Notes under the pieces: model-generated
Told to the model about the DNA's origin: nothing
Seen by the model: only the letters and a program-made list of their open reading frames with translations
Databases searched by the model: none
Made by a program: the position numbers and the translations under genes
In this document: positions 1,109 through 45,555 of the stretch, piece after piece
Layout of the letters: each line of letters starts with the position of its first letter
Numbering within the stretch: the first letter of the stretch is position 1
From: Coprothermobacterota bacterium
GTDB taxonomy: Bacteria > Coprothermobacterota > HKB111
DNA: 64,000 bases
NCBI GenBank assembly: GCA_037440465.1
Contig: JBBIUB010000001.1
Coordinates: forward strand, 92,415-156,414
Direction: 5' to 3'

Positions 1109-1753
1109 TTAATCGGGGAGGACATAGAAAAGCATAGCGATGTAATGACTAATACTACCACCAAGAACAAAGAGGTGCCAGATTGTATGGTTAAATGGGA
1201 TCTTTCTAATAGCAAAAAATATTACTCCCAGGCTGTAAAATAAACCACCAATAATCAACCAGATAACTCCTCCTGCAGGTAATCTCTGAAGCAAGGGGCC
1301 AAAAGCCACAACAGCTAACCAACCCATTAATAGATAAAATGTAGTAGAAAGAATTTCATACCTTGTCTTAAAAATAATCTTATAAGTTATTCCCATAAGA
1401 CCTAATCCCCAGATAATACCAAGTATAGTCCACCCCCATATTCCTCTTAAAGTCACCAGGGCAAAGGGAGTGTAAGTGCCTGCTATTAATATATAAATTG
1501 CAGAATGGTCTATTATTCTGAAGATGCTTTTTACTTTCTTTTGCTGGAAACTATGGTAAAATGTAGAAGCTGCATATAACAAAACCAGGCTGGAACCATA
1601 AATACTAAAACTAACTATCCGCCAGACATCTCCTTTTGAACTTGCCAAAACCAGTAACATAACCAGACCAAAGATACTCAATCCAAAGCCAATTCCATGA
1701 GTGATACTATTAGCTATCTCTTCAGCAAAACTTTTTATTCTGGACCTAATCAT
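1109..1753 (-). CDS. Hemolysin III / PAQR family membrane protein
   Basis: Seven hydrophobic segments with HSFQ...DHSAIYILIAGTYTPF...HxxxH-like tail typical of HlyIII. ORF track starts at 1837, but Met29 (1753) avoids a 92-nt overlap with the upstream MFS gene. Confidence 0.75.
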   Translation of the reverse strand: MIRSRIKSFAEEIANSITHGIGFGLSIFGLVMLLVLASSKGDVWRIVSFSIYGSSLVLLYAASTFYHSFQQKKVKSIFRIIDHSAIYILIAGTYTPFALVTLRGIWGWTILGIIWGLGLMGITYKIIFKTRYEILSTTFYLLMGWLAVVAFGPLLQRLPAGGVIWLIIGGLFYSLGVIFFAIRKIPFNHTIWHLFVLGGSISHYIAMLFYVLPD

Positions 1754-3128
1754 CCCTGCTACCTCCAACATCATGATCAGGTAAAAGGTCTTCTGCTTCC
1801 CTAATTGCTTTGAAAGTATAACTACCCAAACCAACAAGAGCCCCTAACAACCCAAAAATTATAAACATTAAACTCATCCCTGAACCTTTATCAGTACCGA
1901 CTAACCAACCAAAGGATAAGGCGAGAGTTGAATTATTACTCATAGCAGGTTCAAATACATAATCAGCCAGTGGACCTGCAATAAGCATTGCTACAGGAGC
2001 GGTTATCTGGGCAATTAATCTTCTGACAGCAAAAACGCGCCCCTGTACATCAGGTGCTACCTTAGCCTGCCATATTCCCTGGTTGGAACCGTTAATTATA
2101 GGCAAGAAGAATGATGCAAAGAAGGAAGCTATCATCCATATTGGAAGGTTATGGCCAGCTCCCATCAAAACCATGCCCAGAAGGCTACTTCCCACCATCC
2201 CCAGTAATACTCCATGTACTCGTTGTTTTGGCCCTCCCCATATACTTAATAAAAGAGCACCGAGAACTCCACCAACACCTGAGGTTGACCAAACGCTTCC
2301 CAGAATCACAGAATTATTTCCAGTACGAGCAAGAATCATTGGTGCAAGGACGGTATAGGCAATAGTGGCCATAAAGTTACTGGCAAAAAATACCAGTTGA
2401 AGACCCAGAAGACTTGGTCGTTGTAAGATATATTCAAATCCATATAGGGATTCCCGCCAGATACTTCCTTTCCCTTTCTGACCAGCTTCGGTTTTAGGAG
2501 GTTGAGGTATATACACCATAAGGAGAGCACCAATAGCAAAAATAAAAGTTAATATATCAATGGTCATAACACCTGCTATTCCAATAAACTTAAGTAAAAT
2601 CCCAGCCAATATAGGAGCAGCAATTACTGAAGCTGAGTCGGCCAGAGAAAGCATTCCACTTGCCCTCGTATAGTGTTTTTTGGGAAGCATCATAGTTATA
2701 GCAGCAGAGTAGGCAGGAAATTGGAAGGCCTGGAAGGCGCCTGTTATGGCACCAGTAATAAACAGGTGCCAGATCTGAAGTTTGCCTGTAATATACAGTG
2801 TAAGAACTATAATAGTCATAATCCCTGCTATAAGGTCAGTCATTATCATGATTGTTTTTCGATTCCACCTGTCCACAAGAGCACCAGCTATGGGGCTTAA
2901 TATAACAGTAGGTCCAAAAGAGAAAAAAGCCACCAGCGCCAGGGCAGTTACCTTACCTGTTATCTGCCATGCCCAGATTGTCAGGGCAAAACCGGTCATA
3001 GTTGTTCCAAGCAGAGAAACTAATTGCCCAAACCAGACCACCGTAAAACCAGGCATCCCGGTAAAACGATTTCTTTCATCATTAAAGGATTTATCTTCTG
3101 AGCTATTAGTATTTTTTACTTCATCCAA
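1746..3128 (-). CDS. MFS transporter (MFS_3 / EntS-like efflux type)
   Basis: 460 aa with about 12 hydrophobic helices and a DRWNRK loop after TM2. TTG start with GGAGGAAG 7 nt upstream. Confidence 0.75.
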   Translation of the reverse strand: MDEVKNTNSSEDKSFNDERNRFTGMPGFTVVWFGQLVSLLGTTMTGFALTIWAWQITGKVTALALVAFFSFGPTVILSPIAGALVDRWNRKTIMIMTDLIAGIMTIIVLTLYITGKLQIWHLFITGAITGAFQAFQFPAYSAAITMMLPKKHYTRASGMLSLADSASVIAAPILAGILLKFIGIAGVMTIDILTFIFAIGALLMVYIPQPPKTEAGQKGKGSIWRESLYGFEYILQRPSLLGLQLVFFASNFMATIAYTVLAPMILARTGNNSVILGSVWSTSGVGGVLGALLLSIWGGPKQRVHGVLLGMVGSSLLGMVLMGAGHNLPIWMIASFFASFFLPIINGSNQGIWQAKVAPDVQGRVFAVRRLIAQITAPVAMLIAGPLADYVFEPAMSNNSTLALSFGWLVGTDKGSGMSLMFIIFGLLGALVGLGSYTFKAIREAEDLLPDHDVGGSRDD

Positions 3129-3216: not shown

Positions 3217-4566
3217 TTATTTCATAGAAGCACAATGGCTATATAATACATCGTTCAATATTTTATTTAAAGCCGCTGATGATTTTATCATGAGCTCATC
3301 TTCATCAATAAATAGTAGTTTGCCATTTAAACATAATGGTTTACCGTCAACAATGGTGGACTCTACTGAATAAGCATTTAATGCATAAACCAGGAGAGAG
3401 TAAGGATTAGCCTCACCAATAGGCCAGGCATTAATCTTTTTGGGATTTATGATAACCATATCTGCTTTTTTCCCCACTTCTAAACTACCAACCTCTTTAT
3501 TTAGACCCAGGGCTTTTGCACCTCCCAGCGTTGCCAGAGTAAAAGTAGTTTCCGCAGGCATAGTTGTAGGTCCATGAATTGGCTTTTGTATTAGGGAAGC
3601 GAGACGCATTTCCATGAATACATCCAGATTATTATTACAGGGAGCACCGTCAGCACCTAACGAAACATCAATACCCATTTCCAACATTTTTGGGATTGGT
3701 GCTATACCTGATGCCAGTTTAAGGTTAGAAGAGGGACAGTGGAGTACTTTTGTTCCAGTATTCTTGAGCGTTTCCAGCTCTTTTTCGGTTACATGTACAC
3801 AGTGAGCTAAAAGAAGATTTTCTCCAGTTAGTCCTAACGAATCGAGGTATTCAATATTATCCTTTCCAAATCTTTCTTTTACAAGTCTCACTTCTTCTCT
3901 GTTTTCTGAAGCGTGAGTGTGAAGTAAGAGGTTATTTTTTTGAGCTAATTCTTTAGCACTAATAAGGAGTTCTTCAGTAGAAGATATAACAAACCGAGGT
4001 GTAACTGCATAACGAATCCTACCTCCATCTTTAAGATGAAATGTTTTTATGAGTTCTTCAGTTTCCCTGAGAGTATTTGAAGTTCTTTCTTTTAACAGAT
4101 CAGGACTATCAGATCCAAAATCCATCATTACTTTCCCACAAGTGGCCCTTATTCCTGTCTCAAGTAGAACATCAAAAACCACTTCGCTATGGTGAACAGT
4201 AGCCATATCTAATATACAGGTGGTTCCACCTCTAATGAGTTCTGCCACTCCCAGTAATGCTGAAATCCTTATAGTTTCTTTATCAAGAGAAGTTTCAAAA
4301 GGTAAGATTCTTTTTTTTAACCAGTCTAAAAGCTCCAGGTCATTTGCTTGATTGCGAAAAAGTGTCTGAATTAAGTGAATGTGAGTCTGTATCAACCCTG
4401 GAATTACCCATTTACCTTCTGCATCTATTACCAGGTTAGCTGTGTTCCGGGAACTTTCAAGCTCTTTTATAATGTTCCCTTCTACATAAATATCGCCTTT
4501 GAACACCCTTCTTCGGGGGTCCATAGTAATTAATAGTCCATTTTTTACCAGAATGGATGAGTTCAT
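3217..4566 (-). CDS. Amidohydrolase-superfamily enzyme, SsnA/chlorohydrolase/deaminase-like
   Basis: 449 aa. N-terminal VIPGLIQTHIHLIQ (HxH metal motif), HTHASE and SLGADG blocks of the cytosine/guanine/MTA-deaminase-SsnA group. 4-nt ATGA overlap with the ygeW-like gene. Confidence 0.7.
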   Translation of the reverse strand: MNSSILVKNGLLITMDPRRRVFKGDIYVEGNIIKELESSRNTANLVIDAEGKWVIPGLIQTHIHLIQTLFRNQANDLELLDWLKKRILPFETSLDKETIRISALLGVAELIRGGTTCILDMATVHHSEVVFDVLLETGIRATCGKVMMDFGSDSPDLLKERTSNTLRETEELIKTFHLKDGGRIRYAVTPRFVISSTEELLISAKELAQKNNLLLHTHASENREEVRLVKERFGKDNIEYLDSLGLTGENLLLAHCVHVTEKELETLKNTGTKVLHCPSSNLKLASGIAPIPKMLEMGIDVSLGADGAPCNNNLDVFMEMRLASLIQKPIHGPTTMPAETTFTLATLGGAKALGLNKEVGSLEVGKKADMVIINPKKINAWPIGEANPYSLLVYALNAYSVESTIVDGKPLCLNGKLLFIDEDELMIKSSAALNKILNDVLYSHCASMK

Positions 4567-5576
4567 AAACGTCCATTTCCCATTATCAGAGCCATCAATG
4601 CTTTCTGAATGTGGAGCCTGTTTTCTGCCTCATCTTTAACTACTGAATGTGGTCCATCAATGACCTCATTAGTGACCTCAAATCCCCTGTCAGCAGGAAG
4701 GGGGTGCATATATAGAGCGTGTTTTTTAGTTAGGCTCATCATCTGAAAGTCGCATCTCCAGGAAGGATATTTCTTAATAAGTTCTATTCCTTCTTTTTGA
4801 TCCTGTGTGTATACTAAAGGACCCCAGGACTTAGGAATAACTACATCAGCATCCTTGAAAGCCTCATCCATACCTTGAGGATCGCTGACTATTTTGAGGT
4901 TTCCCCCACCATCCTGTGCCCTTTGTTGTGCCAGCTCTACAATCTCTTTTTGAAGATTAAACTCGGGAGGATGAGCTAAAACCACATCTATACCATAACG
5001 GGGCATAAGAGTAATCAAACTCTGAGGGACAGAGATAGGTCTAACATAATTAGGGGCATGGGTCCATGATACGCCAAGCTTTAAACCTTTTAGATTGCGG
5101 GTGGAGAATTTTTCCATCATAGTCAATAAATCTCCCATTATCTGAGGAGGATGATAAACATCATCCTGCATGTTGATAACAGGAATAGAAGCGTACTTTT
5201 CAACTTCCCTGAGGTATTTATGTCCTTCATTATAAGTACAATATCTTATAGATATCCCATGACCATAACGACTCAAAACCTCTGCTGTATCTTTTGGACC
5301 CTCTCCATGAGAAATCTGCAAGGCAGAAGGGCTCAAAAAATGGGCATGACCACCAAGCTGGGTCATACCAGCCTCAAAAGAGTTTCTTGTTCTGGTAGAA
5401 GAGTCAAAAAATATCATAAATAGGGTTTTATTCTTAAGTATCTCGTGGGGGAAACCAAGACCAAAAAGCATTTTAAGGTAAAAAGCTACCTCTATTATGG
5501 TATCCAGCTCTTCTCTATTCCAATCTTCATGTGTTATAAAATGTCTTCCTCTTAAGTCAGTTCGCAAAACAGTCAC
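4563..5576 (-). CDS. ygeW: YgeW-like (knotted) carbamoyltransferase
   Basis: STRTR carbamoyl-phosphate motif. The stretch KLGVSWTHAPNYVRPISVPQSLITLMPRYGIDVVLAHP...EAFKDADVVIPKSWGP closely parallels recalled E. coli YgeW. HPLPADRG replaces HCLPA. The TTG at 5567 (8 nt after AAGGAGG) is a better start than the GTG at 5576. Confidence 0.75.
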   Translation of the reverse strand: MTVLRTDLRGRHFITHEDWNREELDTIIEVAFYLKMLFGLGFPHEILKNKTLFMIFFDSSTRTRNSFEAGMTQLGGHAHFLSPSALQISHGEGPKDTAEVLSRYGHGISIRYCTYNEGHKYLREVEKYASIPVINMQDDVYHPPQIMGDLLTMMEKFSTRNLKGLKLGVSWTHAPNYVRPISVPQSLITLMPRYGIDVVLAHPPEFNLQKEIVELAQQRAQDGGGNLKIVSDPQGMDEAFKDADVVIPKSWGPLVYTQDQKEGIELIKKYPSWRCDFQMMSLTKKHALYMHPLPADRGFEVTNEVIDGPHSVVKDEAENRLHIQKALMALIMGNGRL

Positions 5577-5606
5577 CTCCTTATAATAAATCTAAAATTT
5601 TCACTG

Positions 5607-5638
5607 GAATCCTTGACCCCTTGAATCCTTGACTCCTA
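5607..5638. repeat. Tandem 16-nt repeat in the ygeY-ygeW spacer
   Basis: Plus strand gaatccttgaccccTT / gaatccttgactccTA (5607-5622, 5623-5638). Minus-strand RNA reads GUCAAGGAUUCAAGGG GUCAAGGAUUCCAGUG. Confidence 0.8.
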
Positions 5639-5654
5639 TGTTTATTTAAATATG

Positions 5655-6857
5655 TTACCCATTTCTTTGGCTGAAAACATGTGGAAATAGAGCATAAAAC
5701 TCTGTAGCCTTTAAAAGATGGTCAACAGGAACCTGATCATTGCTGGTATGAGCATACTCTTCCTCACCAGGTCCATACCCTATAGTTGGAATGCCTGCTT
5801 TACCCATCCAGTATACTCCGTTGGTACTGAAATTCCACCTACCCAACGTAGCTTTCTCGCTCGTTAATAAATAATGTGTTTCCTGAGCTACTTTGACAAA
5901 GGGAGACATTTCAGGAAGAGCCCAGGAAGGAAAATAGTGTTCTAATTTAAGGTTCATGCCGGTATAAGCCTTAAAAACAGACTCTATAACTTCTATCTTT
6001 CCTCCATAAGGCTGAATAGCTTCCTCAATCTCTTTTTTTACTCTTTCCAGAGTCTCACCCGCTGTCAACCTTCTATCAATAAAAAGAGTAGCTTTTGCAG
6101 GTACAGCGTTAATAGATGAAGTATCTACCTTCAAGTCTGAAACAACGAGGCTACCCTTCCCAAGAAAATGGTCTTCCAGAAAATTTTTATTCAACTCTTC
6201 CAATTCTAATAGAGCCTTTGAAGATTTAATAAGTGCGTTTTCCCCTAAATGAGGCATGGAAGCATGAGCAGAACGACCGGTAAAAGATATGGAAAATTCA
6301 ACTCTACCTCTATGACCACGATAAATTCTAAGTCCTGTAGGTTCACCAATAACAACACCCTCTGGTCTCATGCCTTTATTTTCTACAAGCACCTGGCTGG
6401 CTAAACCGTCGCATATTTCTTCAGCATTACCTTGAAGGTAAAGAGTAAATTCGGAAGGAAGAAGATTTAGCTCTCTGGCAATTACCATACCAAAAAACAT
6501 AGAGGCAAAACCACCTTTTTCATCACCTGCCCCCAATCCATAAATTACTCCATCTTCTTCGTAAGCATTAAAAGGGTCTCCCTTCCAGGAATTAATATCT
6601 CCAACGCCTACTGTATCTAAATGAGCATCGTAAACCATGGCTCGGGGCCCTTCACCTATTCTAATAAGAGCATTACCCATAGGGTCTCTTTCAAAATCCA
6701 GTCCCCATTGGATCGCCTGGTTTTCAACAAAGGTTACTATATCTTTAATGTCTCCACAAATGCTTTTAATACCAATTAAATCCCTTAATAAATTTTTTAT
6801 CTCATTCTTTTTTTTAAAACCAACTTCCTTAATCTTATTTATCAACTCTTCTTTCAT
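5655..6857 (-). CDS. ygeY: YgeY-like M20 family peptidase/deacylase
   Basis: 400 aa. Blocks DPMGN, DAHLDTVG, GAGDEKGG, YRGHRGR, FLGKGSLVVS, IDRRLTAGET, WNFSTNG and GIPTIGYGPG parallel recalled E. coli YgeY. Confidence 0.65.
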   Translation of the reverse strand: MKEELINKIKEVGFKKKNEIKNLLRDLIGIKSICGDIKDIVTFVENQAIQWGLDFERDPMGNALIRIGEGPRAMVYDAHLDTVGVGDINSWKGDPFNAYEEDGVIYGLGAGDEKGGFASMFFGMVIARELNLLPSEFTLYLQGNAEEICDGLASQVLVENKGMRPEGVVIGEPTGLRIYRGHRGRVEFSISFTGRSAHASMPHLGENALIKSSKALLELEELNKNFLEDHFLGKGSLVVSDLKVDTSSINAVPAKATLFIDRRLTAGETLERVKKEIEEAIQPYGGKIEVIESVFKAYTGMNLKLEHYFPSWALPEMSPFVKVAQETHYLLTSEKATLGRWNFSTNGVYWMGKAGIPTIGYGPGEEEYAHTSNDQVPVDHLLKATEFYALFPHVFSQRNG

Positions 6858-7877
6858 CTATTCAATAACCTCTATTTTTTCAAGTATAGCAATTTGTTCT
6901 TCAGTAAGCCCTGTTTGATGTTCCCTTTCTGGAATCTCTACTACCTTTTCTTCTCCTAATAGTGCTGTAGAAAGGTACCGAAAGCCATGATCATTAAACA
7001 TGGTTATCACTCTTTTAAATTTAGGATGTTTCTTCTTGAGCTTCAAAGCCCCAACCACGTTAGCTCCAGTAGATATTCCAACAAAAAGACCTTCTTCTCT
7101 GGACATTCTGTTAGCCATATCAATAGCTTCCTGGGATGAAACAAGAACCACACCGTCAAGAAGGGTAATATCAAAAATAGAAGGTACAAAACCATCACCT
7201 ATTCCTTCTATCTTATGGTAACCCCAACCCCTCCCAGCTAAAATAGCGCACTCTTTAGGTTCTATGGCAAATATTCTAATTGAGGGGTTCTTCTCTTTCA
7301 AAAACTTGGCAACACCTGTAATTGTCCCTGCACTACCTTGCGTTGCTATAAAGGCATCAATAGTTCCACCTGTCTGTTCCCATATTTCGGGACCAGTTGT
7401 CATATAGTGAGCCTCTACATTTAAAGGATTATTAAACTGATTTACCCAAAAATATTTGCCCGGTTCCACTTCTAATAATTCCTGAACTTTCTTAAGAGTA
7501 AGATCTACATCAGATTCTGCTCCTGGTGTAAACATTATTTCTGCTCCAAAGGCTCGGATAGCTTTCTTCCTTTCTTCACTCATACCATCGGGCATTATTA
7601 TCAAAACTGGATGACCCAAAAAAGCTCCCATCATAGCTGTAGCAATTCCCGTATTGCCTGTAGTAGCTTCAAGAATAGTTATTCCAGGTTTTAGCTTTCC
7701 TTCCTTTATTGCTGAGGTTAGAATGTGGAGAAGGATTCTGTCCTTCAGGCTACCTGAAGGATTTAGAAATTCACACTTCCCAAGAATCTCCAATTCCTCC
7801 TTAACTCCAATCCTGGTAAGTTTTAAAAGAGGAGTTTTACCAATAAGCTGAGTTAGGTTCTCTTTATACTTTGACAT
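6858..7877 (-). CDS. PLP-dependent fold-type II enzyme, cysteine synthase (CysK/CysM)-like
   Basis: 339 aa. GKTPLL, NPSGSLKDR (PLP lysine), TTGNTGIA and GISTGAN blocks. Occupies the position that the fold-type II enzyme YgeX/DpaL has in the E. coli ygeW cluster. Confidence 0.7.
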   Translation of the reverse strand: MSKYKENLTQLIGKTPLLKLTRIGVKEELEILGKCEFLNPSGSLKDRILLHILTSAIKEGKLKPGITILEATTGNTGIATAMMGAFLGHPVLIIMPDGMSEERKKAIRAFGAEIMFTPGAESDVDLTLKKVQELLEVEPGKYFWVNQFNNPLNVEAHYMTTGPEIWEQTGGTIDAFIATQGSAGTITGVAKFLKEKNPSIRIFAIEPKECAILAGRGWGYHKIEGIGDGFVPSIFDITLLDGVVLVSSQEAIDMANRMSREEGLFVGISTGANVVGALKLKKKHPKFKRVITMFNDHGFRYLSTALLGEEKVVEIPEREHQTGLTEEQIAILEKIEVIE

Positions 7878-7910
7878 TAAAATTACCTCCAGATATTTTT
7901 ATAAACCTCC

Positions 7911-9107
7911 TCATATCCGAGGAAAGGGCTTGCTTAAAGCATGAGTTGGGCAGAGAGAATAGCAGAGTCCGCAGCCCACGCAACAGTCTTCATCAAGAAA
8001 AAGATAGCTTCTACCGTTTTCCTCTTTGATACTCAAGGCTTCACTCACGCAGGTTTTTACACAGAGTCCACAGGTTTTACACTTTTCTTCATCAACTACA
8101 GTTGCTACCCGTTCCACCACTTCATCTTGACCATCCTTCAGGGAGCGAAGGTAAAGACCCTGGATATCCTTCACAGAAGTGAAATCATGCTCTTCTAACC
8201 ACTCCTCTAACTCCCTTACCACTCTGCCGAAGATAGAAGGTCCCTCTAGTATGGCACCAGTACATATCTGAACCATAGAAGCTCCTGCCATTAAAAATTC
8301 CACTACATCACTCCCCGATAAAACACCGCCTACTCCAATAACTGGCCTTTTTGTAGAACGAGCAATGTCAAAAACAATCCTCAGAGCTAATGGTTTAATA
8401 GGTGCTCCTGATATCCAGCCAAAGCCATACTTGCTTCCCAGTACAGGTTCAACCTTATCAATATCAAAAGTTAACGTAGGACCTAAGGAATTGATAGCCA
8501 CAAAACCATCTACATAAGGTTCTAAGGCTTGTACTAACTCAATAACATCAGGGACATTTGGAGAAATCTTGGGAAATATTGGGATAGATACAGCATTTCT
8601 AAGGGATTTAGCTGTATCTACCAAAGGTTCCAGACTTTTACCCAGGTAATGCAGGGAAAACTCAATAGCTGAAACCCCCTTTTTCTCCACTAAAGGACCT
8701 ATCTCCCTAACTTGAGCTGGAGAATATCCTATGCTGGCAATCACTGGAAGATTAGAGCTAAGGGCTATATCATACTCCTTATTAAGCCAGTCTTCTAAAG
8801 GTTTTTCAGACCAGAGTTCAGTATTTAGAAGAGCCTGGCTTAATTTGATCTTAACCCTCGAGGCTTTAACTAACTTACCTTGAATTACCGTAGATATCTC
8901 ATGAAGCAATTCCCCTCTTTGTGGAACCATCATATTAGGTTTAGGTACTTTAGCAGGGTTGGTTGATACAGTCTTGGTAACCAAACCACCTGCACCACCT
9001 TTAGCCATCTTTAAAAGGGTATCACCGTCACGGGAAGGAGTGCCTGCTGCCACCAGAATCGGGTTCGGGAATCTGATTCCACAAAGATCTACCCTAAGAT
9101 CCACCAT
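7911..9107 (-). CDS. Dihydroorotate/dihydropyrimidine dehydrogenase (PreA)-like flavoprotein with C-terminal 2x[4Fe-4S] ferredoxin domain
   Basis: N-terminal LCGIRFPNPILVAAGT and GGVLSGSDVVEFLMAGASMVQICT TIM-barrel blocks. C-terminal CKTCGLCVKTC and CVGCGLCYSLCP cluster motifs. 14-nt overlap with the upstream AOR gene. Confidence 0.7.
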   Translation of the reverse strand: MVDLRVDLCGIRFPNPILVAAGTPSRDGDTLLKMAKGGAGGLVTKTVSTNPAKVPKPNMMVPQRGELLHEISTVIQGKLVKASRVKIKLSQALLNTELWSEKPLEDWLNKEYDIALSSNLPVIASIGYSPAQVREIGPLVEKKGVSAIEFSLHYLGKSLEPLVDTAKSLRNAVSIPIFPKISPNVPDVIELVQALEPYVDGFVAINSLGPTLTFDIDKVEPVLGSKYGFGWISGAPIKPLALRIVFDIARSTKRPVIGVGGVLSGSDVVEFLMAGASMVQICTGAILEGPSIFGRVVRELEEWLEEHDFTSVKDIQGLYLRSLKDGQDEVVERVATVVDEEKCKTCGLCVKTCVSEALSIKEENGRSYLFLDEDCCVGCGLCYSLCPTHALSKPFPRI

Positions 9108-11037
9108 CCTTCCTCCTTATAACCCTACCATAACTTTCCAGCTCCAGAGCTACATCTTCCAAGCCAGCTTCAGCCAGGGTTTCGTAATAAAAATTACTCG
9201 TCTCAGAATCATATTTCCTGACTTCATAATATTCCTTAAGCATTGGTTCCAGTTTACATACCTGCCCTTTAGCTGGGCCAGAGGGCATTGGTTCTTCGGT
9301 AAAACGAGGGTGTAAGGTATCTTTTGAAAGTCCAGCTCTCATATTAAAGGCTCTTCTAAGGTGAGCGATTCTTCTTGCTAACTTTCTTACTTCCTCAACA
9401 TCTAAGTATTTTCTAAGACCTGTTGAGTAAGCAATAACTTTAGAGAACTCTGGAAAATAATAAATGGGAGGCCACATAACCCCGTACTTACAGAGAATAA
9501 GAGAATCACAGATAGCAAAGGCTTCCTCCTGGTCAGCTACCATGTATCCTTTATAAGTTTCATCCAGTAGATTACAGCAGATATCAGGATCAAGATGAGG
9601 AAACCGCTCTAAGGATTTGTTTCTGAAGCCCAGTTCATCAATGATACTCAAGCTTCTAAGGTGATCTGCCCCCCTTACATTGATTGCATAAGTAAGTCCA
9701 ACAGATTTATGAGCTCTTGGATCTTGAGCAGAGGCGTCCATACCATTTACTTCTATAGCATACCTTTCCGCTCCTTTTCCAATCTTCTTTGAAGCAAGAT
9801 AAACCCCTTCAGCCAGTACATCACCAATTCCTTCTCTTCTTACTATCATCTCAAGAAGTTTAAGAGCTACATCTCCGTCTCCCCATTTAATCTCTAAACC
9901 ATCTGTATCTTCTTTTGTCAGGATGCCTTTCTCAAAAAGCTCCATAGCAAAAGCTACCATAGAACCAGTAGAGATAGTATCAACCCCATAAGCATTAGCA
10001 AGATAATTAGCCCTAACAGGTATGTCCAGGTCAGAAACCATGATATTAGGACCCCAGGCATCTACTGTCTCATATTCTGGTCCTTCAGACTTCGTGCCAG
10101 AATACTTTCCTTCTTTTATCAAGGAGAAGTACTTACATTGAATGCCACAACCAAAACATGATTTATGGGCTATACGATAACCTTTCCTTATAGCTTCTCC
10201 ACCTACCTTCTCAATTTCCGGGTAAAATCCATCGTAATGATTTTTAACTGGAAGTCGACCAATGGTATTCATGGCATCCATAAGACCGGTAGTACCATAT
10301 TTTCTGGAAGTATGTTTAATGTAGTTGGACCATTCTCCATATTTATGTTCTTTAAACATTTGGGTTGAAAAATCCATAAATTCTTGAGAATGTTTGACTC
10401 TTACAGGAAGGCTACCTCTTACTGCAATTGCTTTAAGATTCTTTGAGCCCAGAACAGCACCTATGCCTGTTCGTCCTGCAGCTCGATAGTAATCAGACAT
10501 TACTGCAGAAAAACGAACCAGTTTTTCACCTGCAGGACCAATGGTAAGAACTCTGATATCTGGATCATTATGTTCTTTTTCCAGCATAGCAGTAGTATCA
10601 AAGGTTGTTTTTCCCCATAAATGGGAAGCGTTTCTTATTTCTACTCTTTCATCTTCTATAAAAAGATATACTGGAGAATCTGATTTACCAGTAATAACAA
10701 TTAAATCATAGCCAGCATACTTAAGCTCAGGACCAAAAAAACCACCTGCATGAGCTTCTCCCCAGCGAAGCGTTTGAGGAGATAAAGACGCTACCATATA
10801 TCTACCCGAAGGCGGAAAGAGAGTTCCAGTTATTGGACCCACTGCCAAAACAAAGACATTCTCAGGAGATAATGGGTTTATACCTTGCTTTATATTATCC
10901 CAGAGAACTTTAGCAGCAAAACCGTCTCCACCAAGATAATCTTTAGCCCAAGAAATAGGTAATTCTCTTTTTTCTACTTTCCCTGAAGATAGGTCTACGA
11001 AGATATACTTACCCTGATAACCTCCAAGAGGATACAT
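9094..11037 (-). CDS. Aldehyde:ferredoxin oxidoreductase (AOR) family tungstopterin enzyme, paralog 1
   Basis: 647 aa. N-terminal GKYIFVDLSSGKV...YLGGDGFAAK, a CFGCGIQC (CxxCxxxC) cluster motif, GPEYETV, and RGADHLRS blocks typical of AOR/FOR. Confidence 0.9.
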   Translation of the reverse strand: MYPLGGYQGKYIFVDLSSGKVEKRELPISWAKDYLGGDGFAAKVLWDNIKQGINPLSPENVFVLAVGPITGTLFPPSGRYMVASLSPQTLRWGEAHAGGFFGPELKYAGYDLIVITGKSDSPVYLFIEDERVEIRNASHLWGKTTFDTTAMLEKEHNDPDIRVLTIGPAGEKLVRFSAVMSDYYRAAGRTGIGAVLGSKNLKAIAVRGSLPVRVKHSQEFMDFSTQMFKEHKYGEWSNYIKHTSRKYGTTGLMDAMNTIGRLPVKNHYDGFYPEIEKVGGEAIRKGYRIAHKSCFGCGIQCKYFSLIKEGKYSGTKSEGPEYETVDAWGPNIMVSDLDIPVRANYLANAYGVDTISTGSMVAFAMELFEKGILTKEDTDGLEIKWGDGDVALKLLEMIVRREGIGDVLAEGVYLASKKIGKGAERYAIEVNGMDASAQDPRAHKSVGLTYAINVRGADHLRSLSIIDELGFRNKSLERFPHLDPDICCNLLDETYKGYMVADQEEAFAICDSLILCKYGVMWPPIYYFPEFSKVIAYSTGLRKYLDVEEVRKLARRIAHLRRAFNMRAGLSKDTLHPRFTEEPMPSGPAKGQVCKLEPMLKEYYEVRKYDSETSNFYYETLAEAGLEDVALELESYGRVIRRKDGGS

Positions 11038-11039
11038 TG

Positions 11040-11528
11040 CTAACCTTCCTTCTGTATAAGAGAAATATATTTCAACATCTTTTCTGCTCCCAGCCTCTTT
11101 TTTCTTAAGCCAACTTTATCTGCTGCGGCATATTCAATAGCCTCAACAGGACAAAACTCTACACATTTAGGGGTTCCACCACATAAATCACATTTCATGG
11201 CAACTTTCTTTAAAGAATGAACCGAAGCACCCCCAAAAGGGCAAACCATAATACAGGTATAACATCCAATACACTTCTTTTCATTTAAAAGTACAACTCT
11301 CAACTGACTATCCCTATAAAGAGCCCGAGAGGGGCAAGACTCCAGGCACAAAGCAGTTTCACATTGCTGGCAAGTTATAGGTATGTCTATACCATCTCTC
11401 TTAAAACTGACCACCGAAATCCGGGAAAGCCTTGGATTAAAGACACCTTCGTGCTCAAAAGAGCATGCCAGTTCACAGATACGACAACCGGTACATTTAT
11501 CAAGATCTACTATAAGTAATTTATCCAT
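11040..11528 (-). CDS. Four-cluster 4Fe-4S ferredoxin-like electron-transfer subunit (AorA/DmsB-like)
   Basis: 162 aa with CTGCRICELAC, CQQCETALCLESCP, CIGCYTCIMVCP and CDLCGGTPKCVEFCP motifs. Abuts the AOR gene. Confidence 0.85.
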   Translation of the reverse strand: MDKLLIVDLDKCTGCRICELACSFEHEGVFNPRLSRISVVSFKRDGIDIPITCQQCETALCLESCPSRALYRDSQLRVVLLNEKKCIGCYTCIMVCPFGGASVHSLKKVAMKCDLCGGTPKCVEFCPVEAIEYAAADKVGLRKKRLGAEKMLKYISLIQKEG

Positions 11529-11756
11529 TTAACCTCCACCTATAGACCAGAGAATTTTAACCTGGTCTCCGTTCTTTAATGGTGTTTCCATGCTCTTGAA
11601 ACTTTCATTTACCAGGATTAGGAAAGGGGCAAAAGAAGGAAGTTCTAAATGAGTTATTAGATCTGAAACAGTTGAGTCTTCTAACAACCCTATTACTTCT
11701 TCCCTACCCTGGTAAAATTCCCGTAATGGTCCAAAAACGCTTACTTTAATCTTCAT
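11529..11756 (-). CDS. MoaD/ThiS-family ubiquitin-like sulfur-carrier protein
   Basis: 75 aa, beta-grasp size, ending ...GDQVKILWSIGGG with the C-terminal Gly-Gly typical of MoaD/ThiS. Directly abuts the ferredoxin gene. Confidence 0.65.
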   Translation of the reverse strand: MKIKVSVFGPLREFYQGREEVIGLLEDSTVSDLITHLELPSFAPFLILVNESFKSMETPLKNGDQVKILWSIGGG

Positions 11757-11805
11757 AATAATTGTTTTTCTCCCACTTTGCTGCTAATTAAGGTTGGAAG
11801 ATTCC

Positions 11806-11831
11806 GTGACATGTAATGTGTGACATGTAAT
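11806..11831. repeat. Direct repeat, 2 x 12 nt (gtgacatgtaat) separated by 2 nt
   Basis: Read directly at 11806-11817 and 11820-11831, in the 176-nt spacer between the two AOR operons. Confidence 0.8.
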
Positions 11832-11932
11832 AAGTAATATGAAATCTGTGAAATGTAAATTATAATTATCTCTCATCGCTTGTCTCCTTTAATCTATAAT
11901 CTGTTAATTATTACTCGTTACTCATCACCCAC

Positions 11933-13828
11933 TTATTCATAATAGCCTTCCGGTAAATCAGGGATAAGCTCATCTAATCCTAATTCTTTGAGTGTTGAAG
12001 GTCTGGGAATACCGTCCAAGGTCCATCCTCTCTCTTTATAATAATCATCTAACATATAAGACAATTCTACAACCTGCCCTTTAGCGCCACCTTCTGTGGC
12101 TTTTTCCTTTAAGAGCCGCTCCGGTAGCGTATCTTCTTTACGAGAAAGACCCAAACGTACGTTGTACATCCTCTGGAGATTAATAATCCTCTCGCCTAAC
12201 TTTTCAAGTTCTTTTATACTATAATCCCAACCTACTGTCAATTTCAGGGCTTTTGTAAGCTCTTCATAACCTAAAGTTGGTGGAACCATCGTCCCATATT
12301 TGCAAACTACTGATGACTCTACTACAGCTCCCCAGTTCTCATTAACATAAATCATATGCCCCTTATGGACAGGGTTTAATCTGTCAGCCATTTCGGGCAT
12401 ATACTTTGCTCCATAGATTCTTTCTACTTCTTCGTCAAATCCACCTTCATCCAAAACTGGAAAAGCATAAAGATGGTCAGCTCCCCGAGCAGAAACTGCT
12501 ATGGCTAAACCCATGGATTTTTGACCTCTTGGCTCCTGGCCAGCTATTTCCATTTTTTTAACTGCCATCACATAATTTATTGCTTCCCCACCTATTATCT
12601 GAGCTGCTTTAAAAGAACCTTCAGCTAAGAGGTTAGCTAAGGGGCCTTCACGATAAGCGATGCGTTTAGTGAGTTCAACGACTGTCTCAGCATCTCCAAA
12701 GAAAAGATCTAAATCATCTCTGTACTCAACGGGTAGGAGTCCAAGATCTGCCAATTCCATAGCAAAGGAAATGACAGCACCCGTACCGATAGTATCTAAA
12801 CCAAGATTATTGCAGAGATAACCAGCATAAATAATCGCTTCAAGATCGTTAACACCACAACGAGAACCAAGGGCAGCTACTGTCTCAAACTCAGGACCCC
12901 CTGTAATACAGCTATATTTACCTTCTTTTACCTGGCAATACCTCCCACAACGCTGAGCACAGGAGAAATCAGCCCGAGGTTTTATCAGATATTTATCTCT
13001 GAGCTCTTTGCCACTTATTAGATGAGCATCTTTAAAATAACCTGAGCGGAGGTTGTTTGTAGGGAGCCTTCCTATTTCAGACATAATCTCTGTAAGACCA
13101 GCAGTACCATAAATCACACGTGTACCTGCAATTGGGTCTTGAATAAGTTTCTGAATTAATTCTTTCATATAAGGAAGATAATTTATCTTATCAAAGACTT
13201 CTATACCCTGGTTTCCTTTAACTACTATTGCCTTAACTTTTTTTGAACCCATTACAGCTCCCACTCCTGAGCGAGCTGCTACCCTATCCCTATCGTTCAC
13301 TATTGAAGAAATAAGAACCAATTTTTCACCTGAAGGACCTATGGATATAATCCTCACATCACTCCCAAGTTCATTCTTTATTATATCTTCTGTTTCATGA
13401 ACAGTCTTACCCCAGATATGAGTGGCTTCCTTAATTAAAACCCTATCATTATTAATATAAATATAAACAGGTTCGGCTGAACTACCTTCAAGCACCAAAC
13501 CATCATATCCAGCGAATTTAAGTTCAGGAGCCCAATGGCCTGCAGAATGTGCTTCACCCCATATGCCAGTCAAAGGTGATTTTGTGGTAACCACATAGCG
13601 ATTGCCCTGTGGCCAGAGAGTACCAGTCAAAGGACCGGTAAAGACGAATAATTTGTTTTCTGATGATAAAGGTTCTACTTCTGCACCTACTTCATGATAA
13701 AGAAAATAAGAAGCAAGTCCCGTTCCCCCCAGATATTTAATCAGAAGTTGATCATCCAAACTTTCTTTTTTGTAGCTTTTATCATCCAGATTTATTCTAA
13801 GAATCTGTCCTCTGTATCCCTTATTCAC
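11933..13828 (-). CDS. Aldehyde:ferredoxin oxidoreductase (AOR) family enzyme, paralog 2
   Basis: 631 aa. GQILRINLDD...YLGGTGLASY, GPEFETV and RGADHLYA blocks. The cluster motif reads SCAQRCGRYC (Cx3Cx3C), not the usual CxxCxxxC. Confidence 0.9.
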   Translation of the reverse strand: MNKGYRGQILRINLDDKSYKKESLDDQLLIKYLGGTGLASYFLYHEVGAEVEPLSSENKLFVFTGPLTGTLWPQGNRYVVTTKSPLTGIWGEAHSAGHWAPELKFAGYDGLVLEGSSAEPVYIYINNDRVLIKEATHIWGKTVHETEDIIKNELGSDVRIISIGPSGEKLVLISSIVNDRDRVAARSGVGAVMGSKKVKAIVVKGNQGIEVFDKINYLPYMKELIQKLIQDPIAGTRVIYGTAGLTEIMSEIGRLPTNNLRSGYFKDAHLISGKELRDKYLIKPRADFSCAQRCGRYCQVKEGKYSCITGGPEFETVAALGSRCGVNDLEAIIYAGYLCNNLGLDTIGTGAVISFAMELADLGLLPVEYRDDLDLFFGDAETVVELTKRIAYREGPLANLLAEGSFKAAQIIGGEAINYVMAVKKMEIAGQEPRGQKSMGLAIAVSARGADHLYAFPVLDEGGFDEEVERIYGAKYMPEMADRLNPVHKGHMIYVNENWGAVVESSVVCKYGTMVPPTLGYEELTKALKLTVGWDYSIKELEKLGERIINLQRMYNVRLGLSRKEDTLPERLLKEKATEGGAKGQVVELSYMLDDYYKERGWTLDGIPRPSTLKELGLDELIPDLPEGYYE

Positions 13829-14222
13829 GGAAATCCTCCTTTAGCTCTATGACTCCAGAGGGACAAATTGTGACACATTTCTCACAGACCTCGCAGATGA
13901 GGGGTGTTTTTTTCTCAGGATGAAGACTCACAGCTTCATAAGGACAGATTTCTTCACAGATTCCACATAAGATGCATAGTTCCTCATCAATAGATACCAC
14001 TCCCTCTTTTTTTCTCAAAGCCAGAGTCGAGCAATTATCAATACAAGGTGCGGGTTCACAATTTTGACAGAACTTCACTTCGTCCCTGCTATCATCAAAA
14101 CGTTTGGTTTTAGCCCGAGATACAGCAGGATTTATCACTCCATAATGAACGAAAGAACAAACAGATTCATGTATCCTGCACCCCGTACAAACAAGAGGGT
14201 TAACCTTCAAATGGCGACCCAT
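13821..14222 (-). CDS. 4Fe-4S ferredoxin-like subunit partnered with AOR paralog 2
   Basis: 133 aa. CQNCEPAPCIDNC, CILCGICEEICP and CEVCEKCVTICP motifs. The first motif is CTGCRIHESVC, with His where the third Cys is expected. 8-nt overlap with AOR2. Confidence 0.8.
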   Translation of the reverse strand: MGRHLKVNPLVCTGCRIHESVCSFVHYGVINPAVSRAKTKRFDDSRDEVKFCQNCEPAPCIDNCSTLALRKKEGVVSIDEELCILCGICEEICPYEAVSLHPEKKTPLICEVCEKCVTICPSGVIELKEDFRE

Positions 14223-14404: not shown

Positions 14405-15205
14405 ATGGAAAGGTATAAAGTACAAACAAGATTCAAGGAAATAGGAGAAGGTGGTCAGGCTAAATTAGCTGAAGGAAGAGTTTGTATTATTGGCCTGGGG
14501 GGTCTTGGGGGGTTTTTAAGCGAACTTCTTACCAGGGCGGGTGTTGGTCGAATAACCCTTATAGATTTTGATTCAGTTGAAATATCCAACCTACAAAGAC
14601 AGATTCTTTACAACGAAGATGATGCAAATGAAGGAAAGTTAAAAGTAGAAACCGCATTAGAGAAACTTAGTAAAATAAACAGTGAAATAGACTTAGTTGG
14701 TTATTCTCTGTACCTTTCTCCGCAGAATGCTGAAAAATTCTTACTTGGTCATGACTTGATCCTTGATGGAACTGACAACTATGGAACCCGTTATTTATTA
14801 AATGACATTGCTGTTAAACATTCAATCCCCTGGATATTCCAGGCAGTTGCTGGAGCTTATGGTATGGCATCAATGATAATTCCTGGGGAAACACCTTGTC
14901 TGAAAGAAATATTACCTGAAGATATTAGCTCTCAGGCTCTACATTGTTCCACTGTAGGTGTAATCTCACCTATCATAGCATCAACAACTGCTTTTACTAT
15001 TACTCAAACATTAAAGTTTTTAACCCAAGGCAAAGAAAACATCGATAGAGGTCTGGCTTTGATAGACCTTTGGCATCCATCTTTTGAATTAATAGAATTG
15101 AATAAAAACCTTCAAGATCCTTGTCCTGTATGCGAATTGAGAAAATTTGAATACCTGGAAGGTGATAAATTTCCCAAACCAAGTGTTAAAGGATCTGCTT
15201 GTTAA
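14405..15205 (+). CDS. ThiF/MoeB/HesA-family E1-like adenylyltransferase
   Basis: 266 aa. Nucleotide loop IIGLGGLGG, DFDSVEISNLQRQ, a conserved Cys region HCSTVGVISP, and a C-terminal CPVC zinc motif. Confidence 0.8.
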   Translation: MERYKVQTRFKEIGEGGQAKLAEGRVCIIGLGGLGGFLSELLTRAGVGRITLIDFDSVEISNLQRQILYNEDDANEGKLKVETALEKLSKINSEIDLVGYSLYLSPQNAEKFLLGHDLILDGTDNYGTRYLLNDIAVKHSIPWIFQAVAGAYGMASMIIPGETPCLKEILPEDISSQALHCSTVGVISPIIASTTAFTITQTLKFLTQGKENIDRGLALIDLWHPSFELIELNKNLQDPCPVCELRKFEYLEGDKFPKPSVKGSAC

Positions 15206-15220: not shown

Positions 15221-15559
15221 ATGTATAAGGTTTATGAAAAAGAAGTTAAACCCGAAATAGTTGAAGAGGGTAAAGCTGCTACTATCAAATGGATATTACA
15301 TAAAGGTATTGGGGTACCAAACTTTGAGTTGCGTATTTTTGAGATTCAACCAGGCGGGCGTACACCTGAACATGTGCATCATTGGGAACATGAAGTGTAT
15401 GTATTATCTGGTAATGGGAAGGTTAAAAGTGAAAGGGGGGATGCAGAGTTAAAACCTGGAGTGGCAGTATTTGTTCCTCCTCAGGAAAAACATGTTTTTG
15501 TAAATGATGGGGAGGAAGAATTAAAGTTTATCTGTGTTATACCTCGTAGAGAGGGATAA
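15221..15559 (+). CDS. Small cupin-domain protein (metal-binding)
   Basis: 112 aa. Cupin motif 1 GGRTPEHVHHWEHEVYVLSGNG and motif 2 PPQEKHVFVND. Confidence 0.7.
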   Translation: MYKVYEKEVKPEIVEEGKAATIKWILHKGIGVPNFELRIFEIQPGGRTPEHVHHWEHEVYVLSGNGKVKSERGDAELKPGVAVFVPPQEKHVFVNDGEEELKFICVIPRREG

Positions 15560-16928: not shown

Positions 16929-16970
16929 CAGGAGTATAACTTTTTAAAATACACTTTTAAGCCAAAGGAA

Positions 16971-17000: not shown

Positions 17001-17016
17001 AACGGAGGTGAAAGAT

Positions 17017-45552: not shown

Positions 45553-45555
45553 ATA

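Follow-up and report, generated by a model that had tools for sequence, protein, structure and literature searches.

Background

Only in 2025 was the anaerobic breakdown of purines through 2,8-dioxopurine elucidated, and it is believed to depend on a selenium-dependent molybdenum (Se/Mo) hydroxylase. The reductive uric acid / 2,8-dioxopurine cluster of Escherichia coli consists of xdhD-ygfM, ygfK, ssnA, hyuA, ygeW, yqeA, ygeY as well as ygeX; a C. difficile variant carries UacX and UacY. In this pathway, XdhD/DOPDH interconverts urate and 2,8-dioxopurine, the rings are opened by SsnA and HyuA, two ureido groups are removed by YgeW with carbamate kinase and by YgeY, which in E. coli hydrolyzes a mono-ureido-diaminopropionate, and YgeX converts 2,3-diaminopropionate to pyruvate (PMC12507026; 10.1101/2025.04.24.650524). 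The ring is dearomatized by YgfK or, in C. difficile, by UacX, a ferredoxin-type DHO_dh protein; the thermodynamic difficulty of this reduction requires YgfK to be coupled to SsnA, and reduction of yanthine by NAD(P)H is unfavorable (PMC12507026). A 'dehydrogenase X1' resembling dihydroorotate dehydrogenase (DHOD) was already linked to ygeW, ygeY and ssnA by Barba et al. in 2013. Described here is an operon on a 64,000-nucleotide stretch (the window) of contig JBBIUB010000001.1 (assembly GCA_037440465.1) from an uncultured subsurface bacterium of the Coprothermobacterota, in which two pairs of a polyferredoxin and an aldehyde:ferredoxin oxidoreductase (AOR) family protein stand where the Se/Mo hydroxylase would be expected.

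Other described systems share parts of this operon. In Aromatoleum, aorABCDE encodes a polyferredoxin, a tungsten subunit and a third subunit, aorD and aorE being MoaD-like (PMC6365974). Like AorABC(+AorD/E) of Aromatoleum aromaticum and the AOR of Moorella (PMC6365974; PDB 8c0z), the window operon combines a polyferredoxin (Fd1), a tungsten subunit (AOR1), a third redox subunit and a MoaD-like gene. Unlike AorC, which binds flavin adenine dinucleotide (FAD) and NAD, the third subunit of the window resembles dihydropyrimidine dehydrogenase (DPD), with flavin mononucleotide (FMN), two [4Fe-4S] clusters and homologs that bind pyrimidine-like substrates, and the operon runs on into ureide-catabolic genes. 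PydAc of Clostridium chromiireducens is a ferredoxin-dependent DPD (PMC7332683). The DPD-like protein of the window (PreA-like) shares with PydAc and E. coli PreA the FMN TIM-barrel, the [4Fe-4S] ferredoxin domain and the lack of an FAD/NAD(P)H domain, and is likewise expected to take electrons from a low-potential iron-sulfur donor; it lacks the catalytic Cys loop and has AORs and purine-type genes as neighbors, not PydB/PydC. WOR1-type five-subunit enzymes of Eubacterium and Acetomicrobium (PMC12096430) similarly join an AOR large subunit and a polyferredoxin to an exchangeable accessory redox module. Such a module, of NuoF/NuoG type, accompanies a third AOR to the left of the window, whereas next to AOR1 the module consists of one DPD-like subunit, a kind that does not figure among the known AOR accessory modules.

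The operon is tentatively interpreted as a version, linked to tungsten, of the cluster for anaerobic reductive degradation of purines (urate / 2,8-dioxopurine type), a plausible reading that falls short of being secure. It is favored because the genes form a tight overlapping operon, the AOR/PreA-like block is colinear in three Bacillota loci and repeated in the closest relative, and the AORs form clades that match gene position. It is favored further by the AOR genes found upstream of PreA-like genes across metagenomes, by the failure of AORs and Mo hydroxylases to occur together, by a Dehalococcoidia contig with AORs beside SsnA and YgeX, and by relatives with the same carbamoyltransferase that carry Mo hydroxylase or XdhC genes. 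The AorA-like Fd1, the position of the PreA-like gene in the aorC slot, the dependence of YgfK on SsnA and the ferredoxin-type nature of UacX point the same way. The AOR-linked arrangement is apparently a conserved, undescribed variant of the recently discovered pathway in the literature searched. An earlier note on this DNA had taken a tungsten/AOR-dependent variant to be new, and the literature searched is in line with this: neither 2025 study of the purine pathway mentions tungsten or AOR, a 2025 review of tungsten enzymes mentions neither purines nor pyrimidines, and targeted literature searches for AOR with DPD, or AOR with purine and carbamoyltransferase, returned no description.

Operon organization

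The operon comprises ten closely packed genes on the minus strand between positions 3217 and 14222 (Table 1), with family labels assigned by scans against Pfam and NCBIfam models with curated cut-offs. Gene order, strand, coordinates, the 14-nt and 4-nt overlaps and the upstream ferredoxin-AOR2 pair are as described in the earlier note. A gap of 176 nt separates AOR2 from the MoaD-like gene. The MFS transporter gene may be the last gene of the unit; its membership is uncertain because it is not conserved in related loci. Scans for promoter and terminator consensus sequences gave matches at background (shuffle) level and are silent on transcription units. No riboswitch or other RNA element, molybdenum cofactor and purine riboswitches included, was found in the window.

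No homologs of Mo hydroxylase, YgfK or HyuA were found among the window open reading frames (ORFs) scanned (nearly all of at least 100 aa), nor did gene calls for the 10 kb left of the window include any. The XdhD/DOPDH Se-Mo hydroxylase was not found in the same region either, in agreement with the previous claim that the canonical XdhD/YgfK/HyuA set is absent. Like the 2,8-dioxopurine cluster, the window operon has a YgeY-family hydrolase above the NCBIfam cut-off, a cog0402 amidohydrolase together with a UacX-like DHO_dh-type iron-sulfur flavoprotein lacking an FAD domain, and a carbamoyltransferase whose family is paired with carbamate kinase in relatives. Unlike that cluster, the operon has neither HyuA nor YgeX, the latter being replaced by a CysK-like enzyme, and its carbamate kinase is distal.

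Table 1. Features of the window discussed in the text, with positions in the 64,000-nt stretch.
Feature	Position	Strand	Description	Family or evidence
MFS transporter	1746-3128	-	460 aa, 88 nt downstream of amidohydrolase; same arrangement on source contig	MFS_1
Amidohydrolase	3217-4566	-	449 aa, cog0402 clade I; 4-nt overlap with carbamoyltransferase	NF005557
Carbamoyltransferase	4563-5567	-	334 aa from called start; longest ORF to 5576	No NCBIfam cut-off reached
YgeY	5655-6857	-	400 aa, M20 hydrolase; abuts CysK-like gene	TIGR03526
CysK-like	6858-7877	-	339 aa, fold-type-II pyridoxal phosphate (PLP) enzyme	PALP
PreA-like	7911-9107	-	398 aa, DPD/PreA/UacX-like FMN protein with C-terminal 2x[4Fe-4S]; 14-nt overlap with AOR1	DHO_dh + Fer4
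AOR1	9094-11037	-	647 aa, AOR-family tungstopterin subunit (predicted)	AFOR_N + AFOR_C
Fd1	11040-11528	-	162 aa, AorA-like polyferredoxin, four [4Fe-4S] clusters	16 Cys in four motifs
MoaD/ThiS-like	11529-11756	-	75 aa, C-terminal GGG	Pfam ThiS, 42.6 bits
AOR2	11933-13828	-	631 aa, AOR-family tungstopterin subunit (predicted)	AFOR_N + AFOR_C
Fd2	13821-14222	-	133 aa, polyferredoxin, AOR2 partner; 8-nt overlap with AOR2	Pfam Fer4 families
ThiF/MoeB-like E1 enzyme	14405-15205	+	Divergent from operon	ThiF, 213.8 bits
Small cupin protein	15221-15559	+	Divergent from operon	Cupin_2
Bmp/PnrA-type ABC importer	15666-20632	+	Binding protein, double ATPase, two permeases	Bmp, ABC_tran x2, BPD_transp_2 x2
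Carbamate kinase	51638-52594	-		TIGR00746, 386 bits (cut-off 358)
Canonical ornithine transcarbamylase (OTC)	52604-53530	-	Upstream of carbamate kinase
P-loop protein	53527-54873	-	448 aa, soluble; 4-nt overlap with canonical OTC

Conservation of the gene neighborhood

Gene content, orthology and position-specific synteny were compared in 84 neighborhoods of PreA-like genes, the window included; 80 of these loci came from a metagenome scan. AOR genes occur in 44 of the 84 loci, polyferredoxins in 40, cog0402 amidohydrolases in 34, carbamoyltransferases in 23, ThiS/MoaD genes in 22, cyclic amidohydrolases (allantoinase/hydantoinase-like) in 16, a threonine-synthase-like PLP enzyme in 14, carbamate kinase in 12, a PfkB kinase in 10 and a Mo hydroxylase in 6. 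An AOR, as a polyferredoxin-AOR pair, lies directly upstream of the PreA-like gene in at least 28 of the 59 loci with enough flanking sequence, and in 18 of 50 lineages after de-replication at 85% identity. The association follows the identity of the PreA-like protein to that of the window: it is seen in all four of the closest relatives, above the 55% tier (gene-order listing), in 26 of 33 loci at 47-55% (script count) and in none of 22 below 47%. The gap between AOR and PreA-like gene is 60 nt or less in 17 loci. Among loci with long flanks, 15 of the 18 AOR-linked ones carry ring amidohydrolases; a Mo hydroxylase is present in none of these 18 and in 6 of 23 other loci (Fisher p = 0.027).

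In the closest relative (L088, PreA-like 87% identical) the order Fd1-AOR1-PreA-CysK-YgeY is repeated at 75-94% identity. At 3506-4228 of this locus a gene for an additional 240-aa QueG-like Fer4 protein stands between the PreA-like and CysK-like genes, which in the window are 33 nt apart. Three Bacillota loci, two from metagenome-assembled genomes (MAGs; L089, L090) and one from a metagenome contig (L091), contain the colinear order Fd2-AOR2-MoaD-Fd1-AOR1-PreA at 40-69% identity. Carbamoyltransferase genes surround the block in L089 and L090 (two, of which one is visible in L090), together with genes for carbamate kinase, a third AOR and a Bmp ABC importer; L089 additionally encodes an amidohydrolase of cog0402 as well as a purine nucleoside phosphorylase, and the shorter L091 has carbamate kinase and a third AOR only. 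A Bmp-type transporter flanks the AOR/PreA block in L089, L090 and L136 and is present in other PreA-like loci too.

In seven loci from one or two related lineages (L103, L110, L113, L114, L116, L118, L145), the AOR gene is separated from the PreA-like gene by one for a CLC-type chloride channel that has CBS domains, which indicates that translational coupling of the two is not obligatory. Distant members of the PreA-like family stand in AOR-free arrangements, one of which includes Mo hydroxylases. Another (L138, L139, L158) has the order carbamoyltransferase, carbamoyltransferase, carbamate kinase, SsnA-like, PreA-like, threonine-synthase-like; paired IF-2B family genes (ribose-1,5-bisphosphate isomerase type) in these three loci suggest a link to nucleoside sugar salvage.

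Starting from AOR1, two neighborhoods were looked up, one positive and one negative. The positive one is a Dehalococcoidia contig (L172) with, in order, a partial YgfK-like gene, a carbamoyltransferase (48% identity), a PRK07228 amidohydrolase (50%), a CysK-like gene (56%), YgeX, SsnA, a polyferredoxin (56%), an AOR (64% to AOR1), another AOR, ThiS and an AorC/PadH-like protein. Its YgeX (630 bits, cut-off 532) and SsnA (662 bits, cut-off 444) are bona fide members of these families, and SsnA coexists there with the window-type amidohydrolase. Orthologs of five window genes are thus found beside SsnA, YgeX and a partial YgfK-like gene, which ties the AOR1 clade to the canonical purine pathway independently of the DPD-like protein. 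The AorC/PadH-like gene was seen in L172 only. The negative neighborhood (L173) belongs to a Sulfolobales member of the AOR1 clade and shows no nucleobase genes nearby.

From the side of the carbamoyltransferase the result is different. Its family gave several thousand matches, the 119 relatives listed being 60-70% identical. Across about 32 genomes of many phyla, the genes around it encode a YgeY-like M20 protein, carbamate kinase, PALP enzymes and amidohydrolases, and in none of these roughly 32 loci does an AOR lie within 10 kb; a link to AORs is not a general trait of the window carbamoyltransferase family. The closest relatives of the window protein (67-70% identity), in Bacillota, Moorellaceae and related MAGs, stand in purine-type clusters with Mo hydroxylases of the xanthine dehydrogenase type, XdhC, a xanthine/uracil permease, an adenine deaminase, a dihydropyrimidinase/hydantoinase, carbamate kinase and a serine dehydratase. 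L001 and L084-L086, which have the same carbamoyltransferase, carry Mo hydroxylase or XdhC genes, and in L001 and L086 an ortholog of the window amidohydrolase (52-55% identity) is translationally coupled to Mo-hydroxylase subunits. The lower half of the window operon is thus part of a purine-catabolic module normally paired with a Mo hydroxylase. Taken alone, the search from the carbamoyltransferase would refute the co-occurrence of AOR and ureide genes; the searches from the PreA-like gene and AOR1 reversed this conclusion. The association of AORs with a ygeW block, as first proposed, holds for the redox block with amidohydrolases and carbamoyltransferases but not for the carbamoyltransferase family itself; Mo hydroxylases adjoin the closest relatives of the window protein. 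A second, distinct carbamoyltransferase paralog, adjacent to and usually directly upstream of the one related to the window protein, was observed in nine loci of Chloroflexota and Actinomycetota (L006, L014, L015, L022, L023, L026, L027, L029, L030); it forms its own clade near canonical OTCs.

The co-conservation of the AOR/DPD-like redox block with ureide-catabolic genes (amidohydrolases and carbamoyltransferases, with carbamate kinase in the closest Bacillota relatives) is supported by three Bacillota loci, one Dehalococcoidia MAG and many metagenome contigs. The same data bear on a mosaic without functional meaning, in which a general-purpose AOR cluster for acid reduction or aldehyde detoxification in an acetogen-like, AOR-rich host happens to lie upstream of a purine-ureide module, and the PreA-like protein would do no more than transfer electrons for the AOR. 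A stretch of 25 kb holds at least three AOR loci, next to Wood-Ljungdahl genes, the carbamoyltransferase-YgeY block elsewhere has a Mo hydroxylase neighborhood that the AOR block does not share, and the Sulfolobales AOR stands without nucleobase genes. We nevertheless consider a mosaic very improbable: in many lineages and phyla the AOR/PreA-like block is repeatedly linked to amidohydrolases and carbamoyltransferases, joined by carbamate kinase among the closest Bacillota relatives and by Bmp importers in some lineages, the AOR clades match gene position, and the AOR1-PreA-CysK-YgeY junction is retained in L088, where a single additional Fer4 gene follows the PreA-like gene.

AOR subunits and their electron partners

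Both AORs are AOR sensu stricto by sequence. The best structure match of each is the Pyrococcus furiosus AOR (1aor; 411 bits for AOR1, 456 bits for AOR2), and Aromatoleum AorB scores about 370 bits against the window AORs (370 bits for AOR1). FOR, WOR5 and BamB score far below, and identity with BamB-, FOR-, WOR5- or GAPOR-type enzymes was rejected, AOR sensu stricto structures scoring far higher. AOR1 retains Glu313 and His448 of the P. furiosus enzyme, the Tyr/Thr second shell, the four cluster Cys and the pterin Asp, and these motifs are conserved in essentially all cluster AORs. In the [4Fe-4S] motif of AOR2 (DFSCAQRC) the first ligand is Asp, not Cys; the same replacement is seen in several other cluster AORs of the alignment and was reported for WOR5/ASOR too (tungsten enzyme review). 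A tungsten cofactor and aldehyde:ferredoxin oxidoreductase activity are predicted for AOR1 and AOR2 from sequence.

In the AOR tree the proteins sort by gene position. Those encoded directly upstream of the PreA-like gene, AOR1 among them, form one clade, those downstream of it form its sister clade, and AOR2-type proteins form a third, separate clade with those of L089-L091 and distal AORs of other loci. This match of clade and position indicates long co-inheritance. Fd1 has its best PDB matches in 9mqx_E (152 bits) and AorA (8c0z_C, 137 bits), and its orthologs (55-94% identity) precede AOR1 orthologs. Fd2 is 41% identical to Fd1 and has orthologs (44-48% identity) at the same position in L089-L091. 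The MoaD-like protein is presumed to be the sulfur carrier for the tungsten cofactor, and the divergently encoded ThiF protein may activate it; ThiS genes recur in the PreA-like loci as counted above. The source contig directly to the left of the window (L171, 10462-15652) encodes a third AOR (610 aa) behind genes for NuoF-like, NuoG/Fer2-like and polyferredoxin proteins; a ThiS-like gene follows, an order of the WOR1-type multi-subunit kind. Acetyl-CoA synthase corrinoid (CdhD) genes lie beyond it on L171, and the organism is thus AOR-rich and probably uses the Wood-Ljungdahl pathway.

The canonical active site suits another explanation, in which the AORs are ordinary aldehyde:ferredoxin oxidoreductases serving as a dedicated source of low-potential electrons. 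AOR1, Fd1 and the PreA-like protein would form an AorABC-like complex with the DPD-like protein in place of AorC, and oxidation of an aldehyde, which could come from a nucleoside sugar or elsewhere in metabolism, would drive dearomatization of a heterocycle with which the AORs have no contact. True AORs are the closest structures, the order polyferredoxin-AOR-third subunit is that of aorA-aorB-aorC with an AorA-like Fd1, and the tight coupling (14-nt overlap in the window and the short gaps elsewhere), the iron-sulfur entry domain of a PreA-like protein without FAD/NAD domain and the unfavorable reduction of yanthine by NAD(P)H all suit it; PfkB, IF-2B and purine nucleoside phosphorylase genes in related loci hint at sugar-phosphate side products. 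Several observations make this explanation somewhat unlikely, however. No aldehyde-generating enzyme is conserved in the clusters, and two or three dedicated AOR paralog clades per cluster are hard to square with a single donor function. In L172 the AORs have their own AorC/PadH-like subunit and the contig encodes a YgfK-like reductase (of the NAD(P)H type in E. coli), so that wiring to a DPD-like protein is unneeded there. The non-co-occurrence of AORs and Mo hydroxylases is also left unexplained.

PreA-like flavoprotein

The PreA-like protein scores 177 bits against the NCBIfam PreA model NF006183 (cut-off 335). Its best fold match is pig DPD, with a template modeling (TM) score of 0.71 for a model of pLDDT 81, and DPD is nearest by sequence too. 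It combines a DPD-type FMN barrel with a C-terminal 2x[4Fe-4S] domain in which eight Cys for the two clusters are invariant. The active-site loop is shortened, and an invariant IEFSxHY stands where DPD has ELNLSCPH, so that an equivalent of the catalytic Cys671 of the pig enzyme is missing; two of three pyrimidine-binding Asn and the Glu are conserved. It has no FAD/NAD domain and fills the aorC slot of the operon, and no PreT-like gene (the FAD partner) was found in the window. Its architecture, PF01180 with iron-sulfur clusters and no FAD domain, is UacX-like, a comparison based on architecture only. An SsnA-like gene adjoins the PreA-like gene in type-B relatives, not in the window. Residues ~56-95 form a predicted beta-hairpin insertion of low model confidence, which is found in most aligned members, those of the Bacillota included, and is absent from Asgard-archaeal and Chloroflexi members.

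These features could also suit another substrate. In a ferredoxin-type reductive pyrimidine pathway, the amidohydrolase would deaminate cytosine or open a dihydropyrimidine, the PreA-like protein would reduce uracil or thymine as PydAc does, the carbamoyltransferase or YgeY would decarbamoylate N-carbamoyl-beta-alanine, and an AOR would oxidize (methyl)malonic semialdehyde and return the electrons to the reductase, making the pathway redox-neutral. This simple redox balance, the DPD-like fold and sequence, the retained pyrimidine-binding residues, the precedent of ferredoxin-dependent uracil reduction by PydAc (PMC7332683) and the recurrence in AOR-linked loci of cyclic amidohydrolases near dihydropyrimidinase/allantoinase are in its favor. 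A pyrimidine substrate is nonetheless judged improbable, the catalytic Cys671 loop being missing and no beta-alanine aminotransferase being conserved in the clusters. In addition, YgeY and the SsnA, YgeX and partial YgfK-like genes of L172 tie the gene set to the purine pathway, and the carbamoyltransferase has relatives whose neighbors are genes of the xanthine dehydrogenase type, XdhC, adenine deaminase and permeases for xanthine/uracil. Pyrimidine biosynthesis, with carbamoyltransferase, amidohydrolase and DHOD-like protein running forward, was considered and rejected: the carbamoyltransferase is not like aspartate transcarbamylase, and the redox direction is uphill. Driving an AOR-type acid reduction by a DHOD-type oxidation is strongly unfavorable by the redox potentials.

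Ureide module

YgeY is a true family member by sequence (TIGR03526, 410.7 bits against a cut-off of 321.5) and presumably acts as a ureido or N-carbamoyl amidase; its gene adjoins that of the carbamoyltransferase family in many genomes. The CysK-like enzyme scores 348 bits against the cysKM model (cut-off 344) and 342 bits against cysK (cut-off 351), has the SLKDR lysine and a TTGNTG loop, and has orthologs in L088 (84% identity), L007 (59%), L172 (56%), L117 (51%) and L154 (46%).

The carbamoyltransferase had been read as YgeW-like. The YgeW equivalog models gave 186 and 199 bits (cut-offs 500 for TIGR03316 and 453 for NF005538), the protein is 334-337 aa long against about 390-400 aa for YgeW, P. 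furiosus OTC scores higher (278 bits) than YgeW (3q98, 255 bits), and the best folds are N-acetylornithine transcarbamylase (AOTCase, TM 0.85) and P. furiosus OTC, with YgeW outside the top 50. Identity with YgeW was rejected on these grounds. Identity with OTC was rejected as well: the protein reaches 247.6 bits with TIGR00658 (cut-off 280.85), carries the motifs STRTR, HPPQ, KSWG and HPLP where the canonical OTC of the window has the ornithine-binding SMG and HCLP in place of the last two, is 41% identical to that OTC and falls in a clade (A1) apart from canonical OTCs, as the earlier note had expected. It belongs, by these sequence comparisons, to a separate uncharacterized family of 325-335 aa that is neither OTC nor YgeW. 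A YgeW-type activity, phosphorolysis of 2,3-diureidopropionate coupled to carbamate kinase, would be a candidate; in relatives, genes for YgeY and carbamate kinase are its neighbors.

The amidohydrolase gave 182 and 184 bits with the SsnA models (cut-offs 455.5 for TIGR03314 and 444 for NF005540) and falls in clade I of cog0402, distinct from its sister, the SsnA-like clade II; identity with SsnA was therefore discarded. It exceeds the cut-off of NF005557 (PRK07228; 595 bits against 522), a model named for 5'-deoxyadenosine deaminase, which is a putative function in this clade. Among PDB structures, 3hpa and 7ww2, an 8-oxoguanine deaminase, come closest, and by sequence the clade is nearest 8-oxoguanine and guanine deaminases. 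Orthologs with 50-55% identity occur in L001, L086 and L172. All family-level labels of the earlier note are thus borne out by Pfam and NCBIfam, YgeY as a true member, whereas 'YgeW-like' and 'SsnA-like' hold at the superfamily level only.

Carbamate kinase is genuine and the only one found in the window, but it belongs to a separate operon with the canonical OTC and not to the ureide genes to which it had been linked. It is a candidate consumer of the carbamoyl phosphate of the operon; C. sporogenes offers a precedent for a carbamate kinase encoded at a distance (10.1101/2025.04.24.650524). The divergent ABC importer is of the Bmp/PnrA type, in line with its previous reading as a nucleoside-type importer, and is presumed to take up nucleosides or nucleobases.

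Proposed pathway

In the tungsten-linked purine pathway preferred here, the role of the AORs and the single steps are modeled on the E. coli and C. difficile systems. Nucleosides or bases would enter via the adjacent Bmp-type importer. The clade-I amidohydrolase would deaminate an aminopurine or hydrolyze a ring amidine bond. Fd1 would wire AOR1 to the DPD/UacX-like FMN-2[4Fe-4S] protein, and Fd2 would do likewise for AOR2, so that the AORs and the PreA-like protein supply the redox steps of XdhD plus YgfK or UacX. In place of the Se/Mo hydroxylase, the AORs would shift one ring carbon between the carboxyl/lactam and the aldehyde/imine level. They might act on the purine ring directly, the more novel option, or perform acid-aldehyde chemistry on a ring-opened ureido-imidazole carboxylate, which could come from the clade-I amidohydrolase, followed by reclosure, the net result being a dehydroxylation. 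The second option is favored because the AOR active site is canonical. The PreA-like protein would then dearomatize the ring with low-potential electrons, the ring-opened ureides would be stripped by the carbamoyltransferase (phosphorolysis) and YgeY (hydrolysis), carbamoyl phosphate would yield ATP through the distal carbamate kinase, and the CysK-like enzyme would process the resulting C3 amino acid. In its strongest form, the proposal has the purine as the direct substrate of an AOR-family tungstoenzyme, which would be the first purine hydroxylase/dehydroxylase to depend on tungsten and would replace the Se-Mo hydroxylase. In one complex of AOR, polyferredoxin and flavoprotein, electrons would pass via the polyferredoxin to the DPD-like subunit, so that the change in oxidation state of the ring carbon and the dearomatization are coupled without a free redox carrier. 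This form is considered unlikely.

A number of points weigh against the tungsten-linked reading. We know of no AOR-family enzyme in nucleobase catabolism, and AOR1 and AOR2 are by sequence nearest to broad-specificity AORs and retain all aldehyde-oxidizing residues, so that their role in the pathway stays conjectural. The organism is rich in AORs, with one more just left of the window, the AOR1-clade member of the Sulfolobales has no nucleobase genes nearby, and the carbamoyltransferase family has no AOR within 10 kb in the loci surveyed. The ring opening that had been ascribed to the amidohydrolase is doubtful, since its nearest relatives are exocyclic deaminases and it may deaminate instead; no second ring-opening enzyme is obvious in the operon, and without SsnA-, HyuA- and YgeX-type genes it does not encode every step between the ring and the C3 amino acid. 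Carbamate kinase lies 47 kb from the operon, downstream of the canonical OTC. A Mo hydroxylase could lie beyond the ends of L172, that contig being only 17 kb long. The sequence is carried by DNA runs only (subsurface and hot-spring metagenomes), which lend no support for expression.

If the tungsten-linked reading is true, the AOR family gains a role in nucleobase catabolism that is not listed in the 2025 tungsten enzyme review, and the DPD-like flavoprotein is a new kind of accessory subunit of AOR complexes. It would explain how anaerobes of the deep subsurface and hot springs, as well as Dehalococcoidia and possibly Asgard and other archaea, recycle nucleic-acid bases and gain ATP via carbamoyl phosphate. 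Hints of function would be obtained for three large uncharacterized families, namely the ~330-aa carbamoyltransferase, the clade-I cog0402 amidohydrolase and the IEFSxHY flavoprotein. The arrangement recurs in many uncultured anaerobes.

Other features of the window

The P-loop protein encoded next to the canonical OTC has a Walker-A-like motif (GAIRTGAGKSQT) and matches no Pfam or NCBIfam family, with faint similarity to cyclic 2,3-diphosphoglycerate synthetase only. Homologs with 56-62% identity are found near OTC genes in L036, L043, L050, L051, L053 and L079. Two tRNA genes (51419-51588, minus strand) lie between carbamate kinase and tilS-like genes. Genes of the histidine-utilization type are present in the window: an aromatic amino acid (histidine) ammonia-lyase at 43654-45168, and, at 32381-34511, an amidohydrolase adjoining glutamate formiminotransferase; a urocanase was not seen there or elsewhere in the window. 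A carboxyltransferase (513 aa), a small biotin-carrier protein and a 104-aa protein are encoded at 45175-47432 and resemble a biotin-dependent decarboxylase set.

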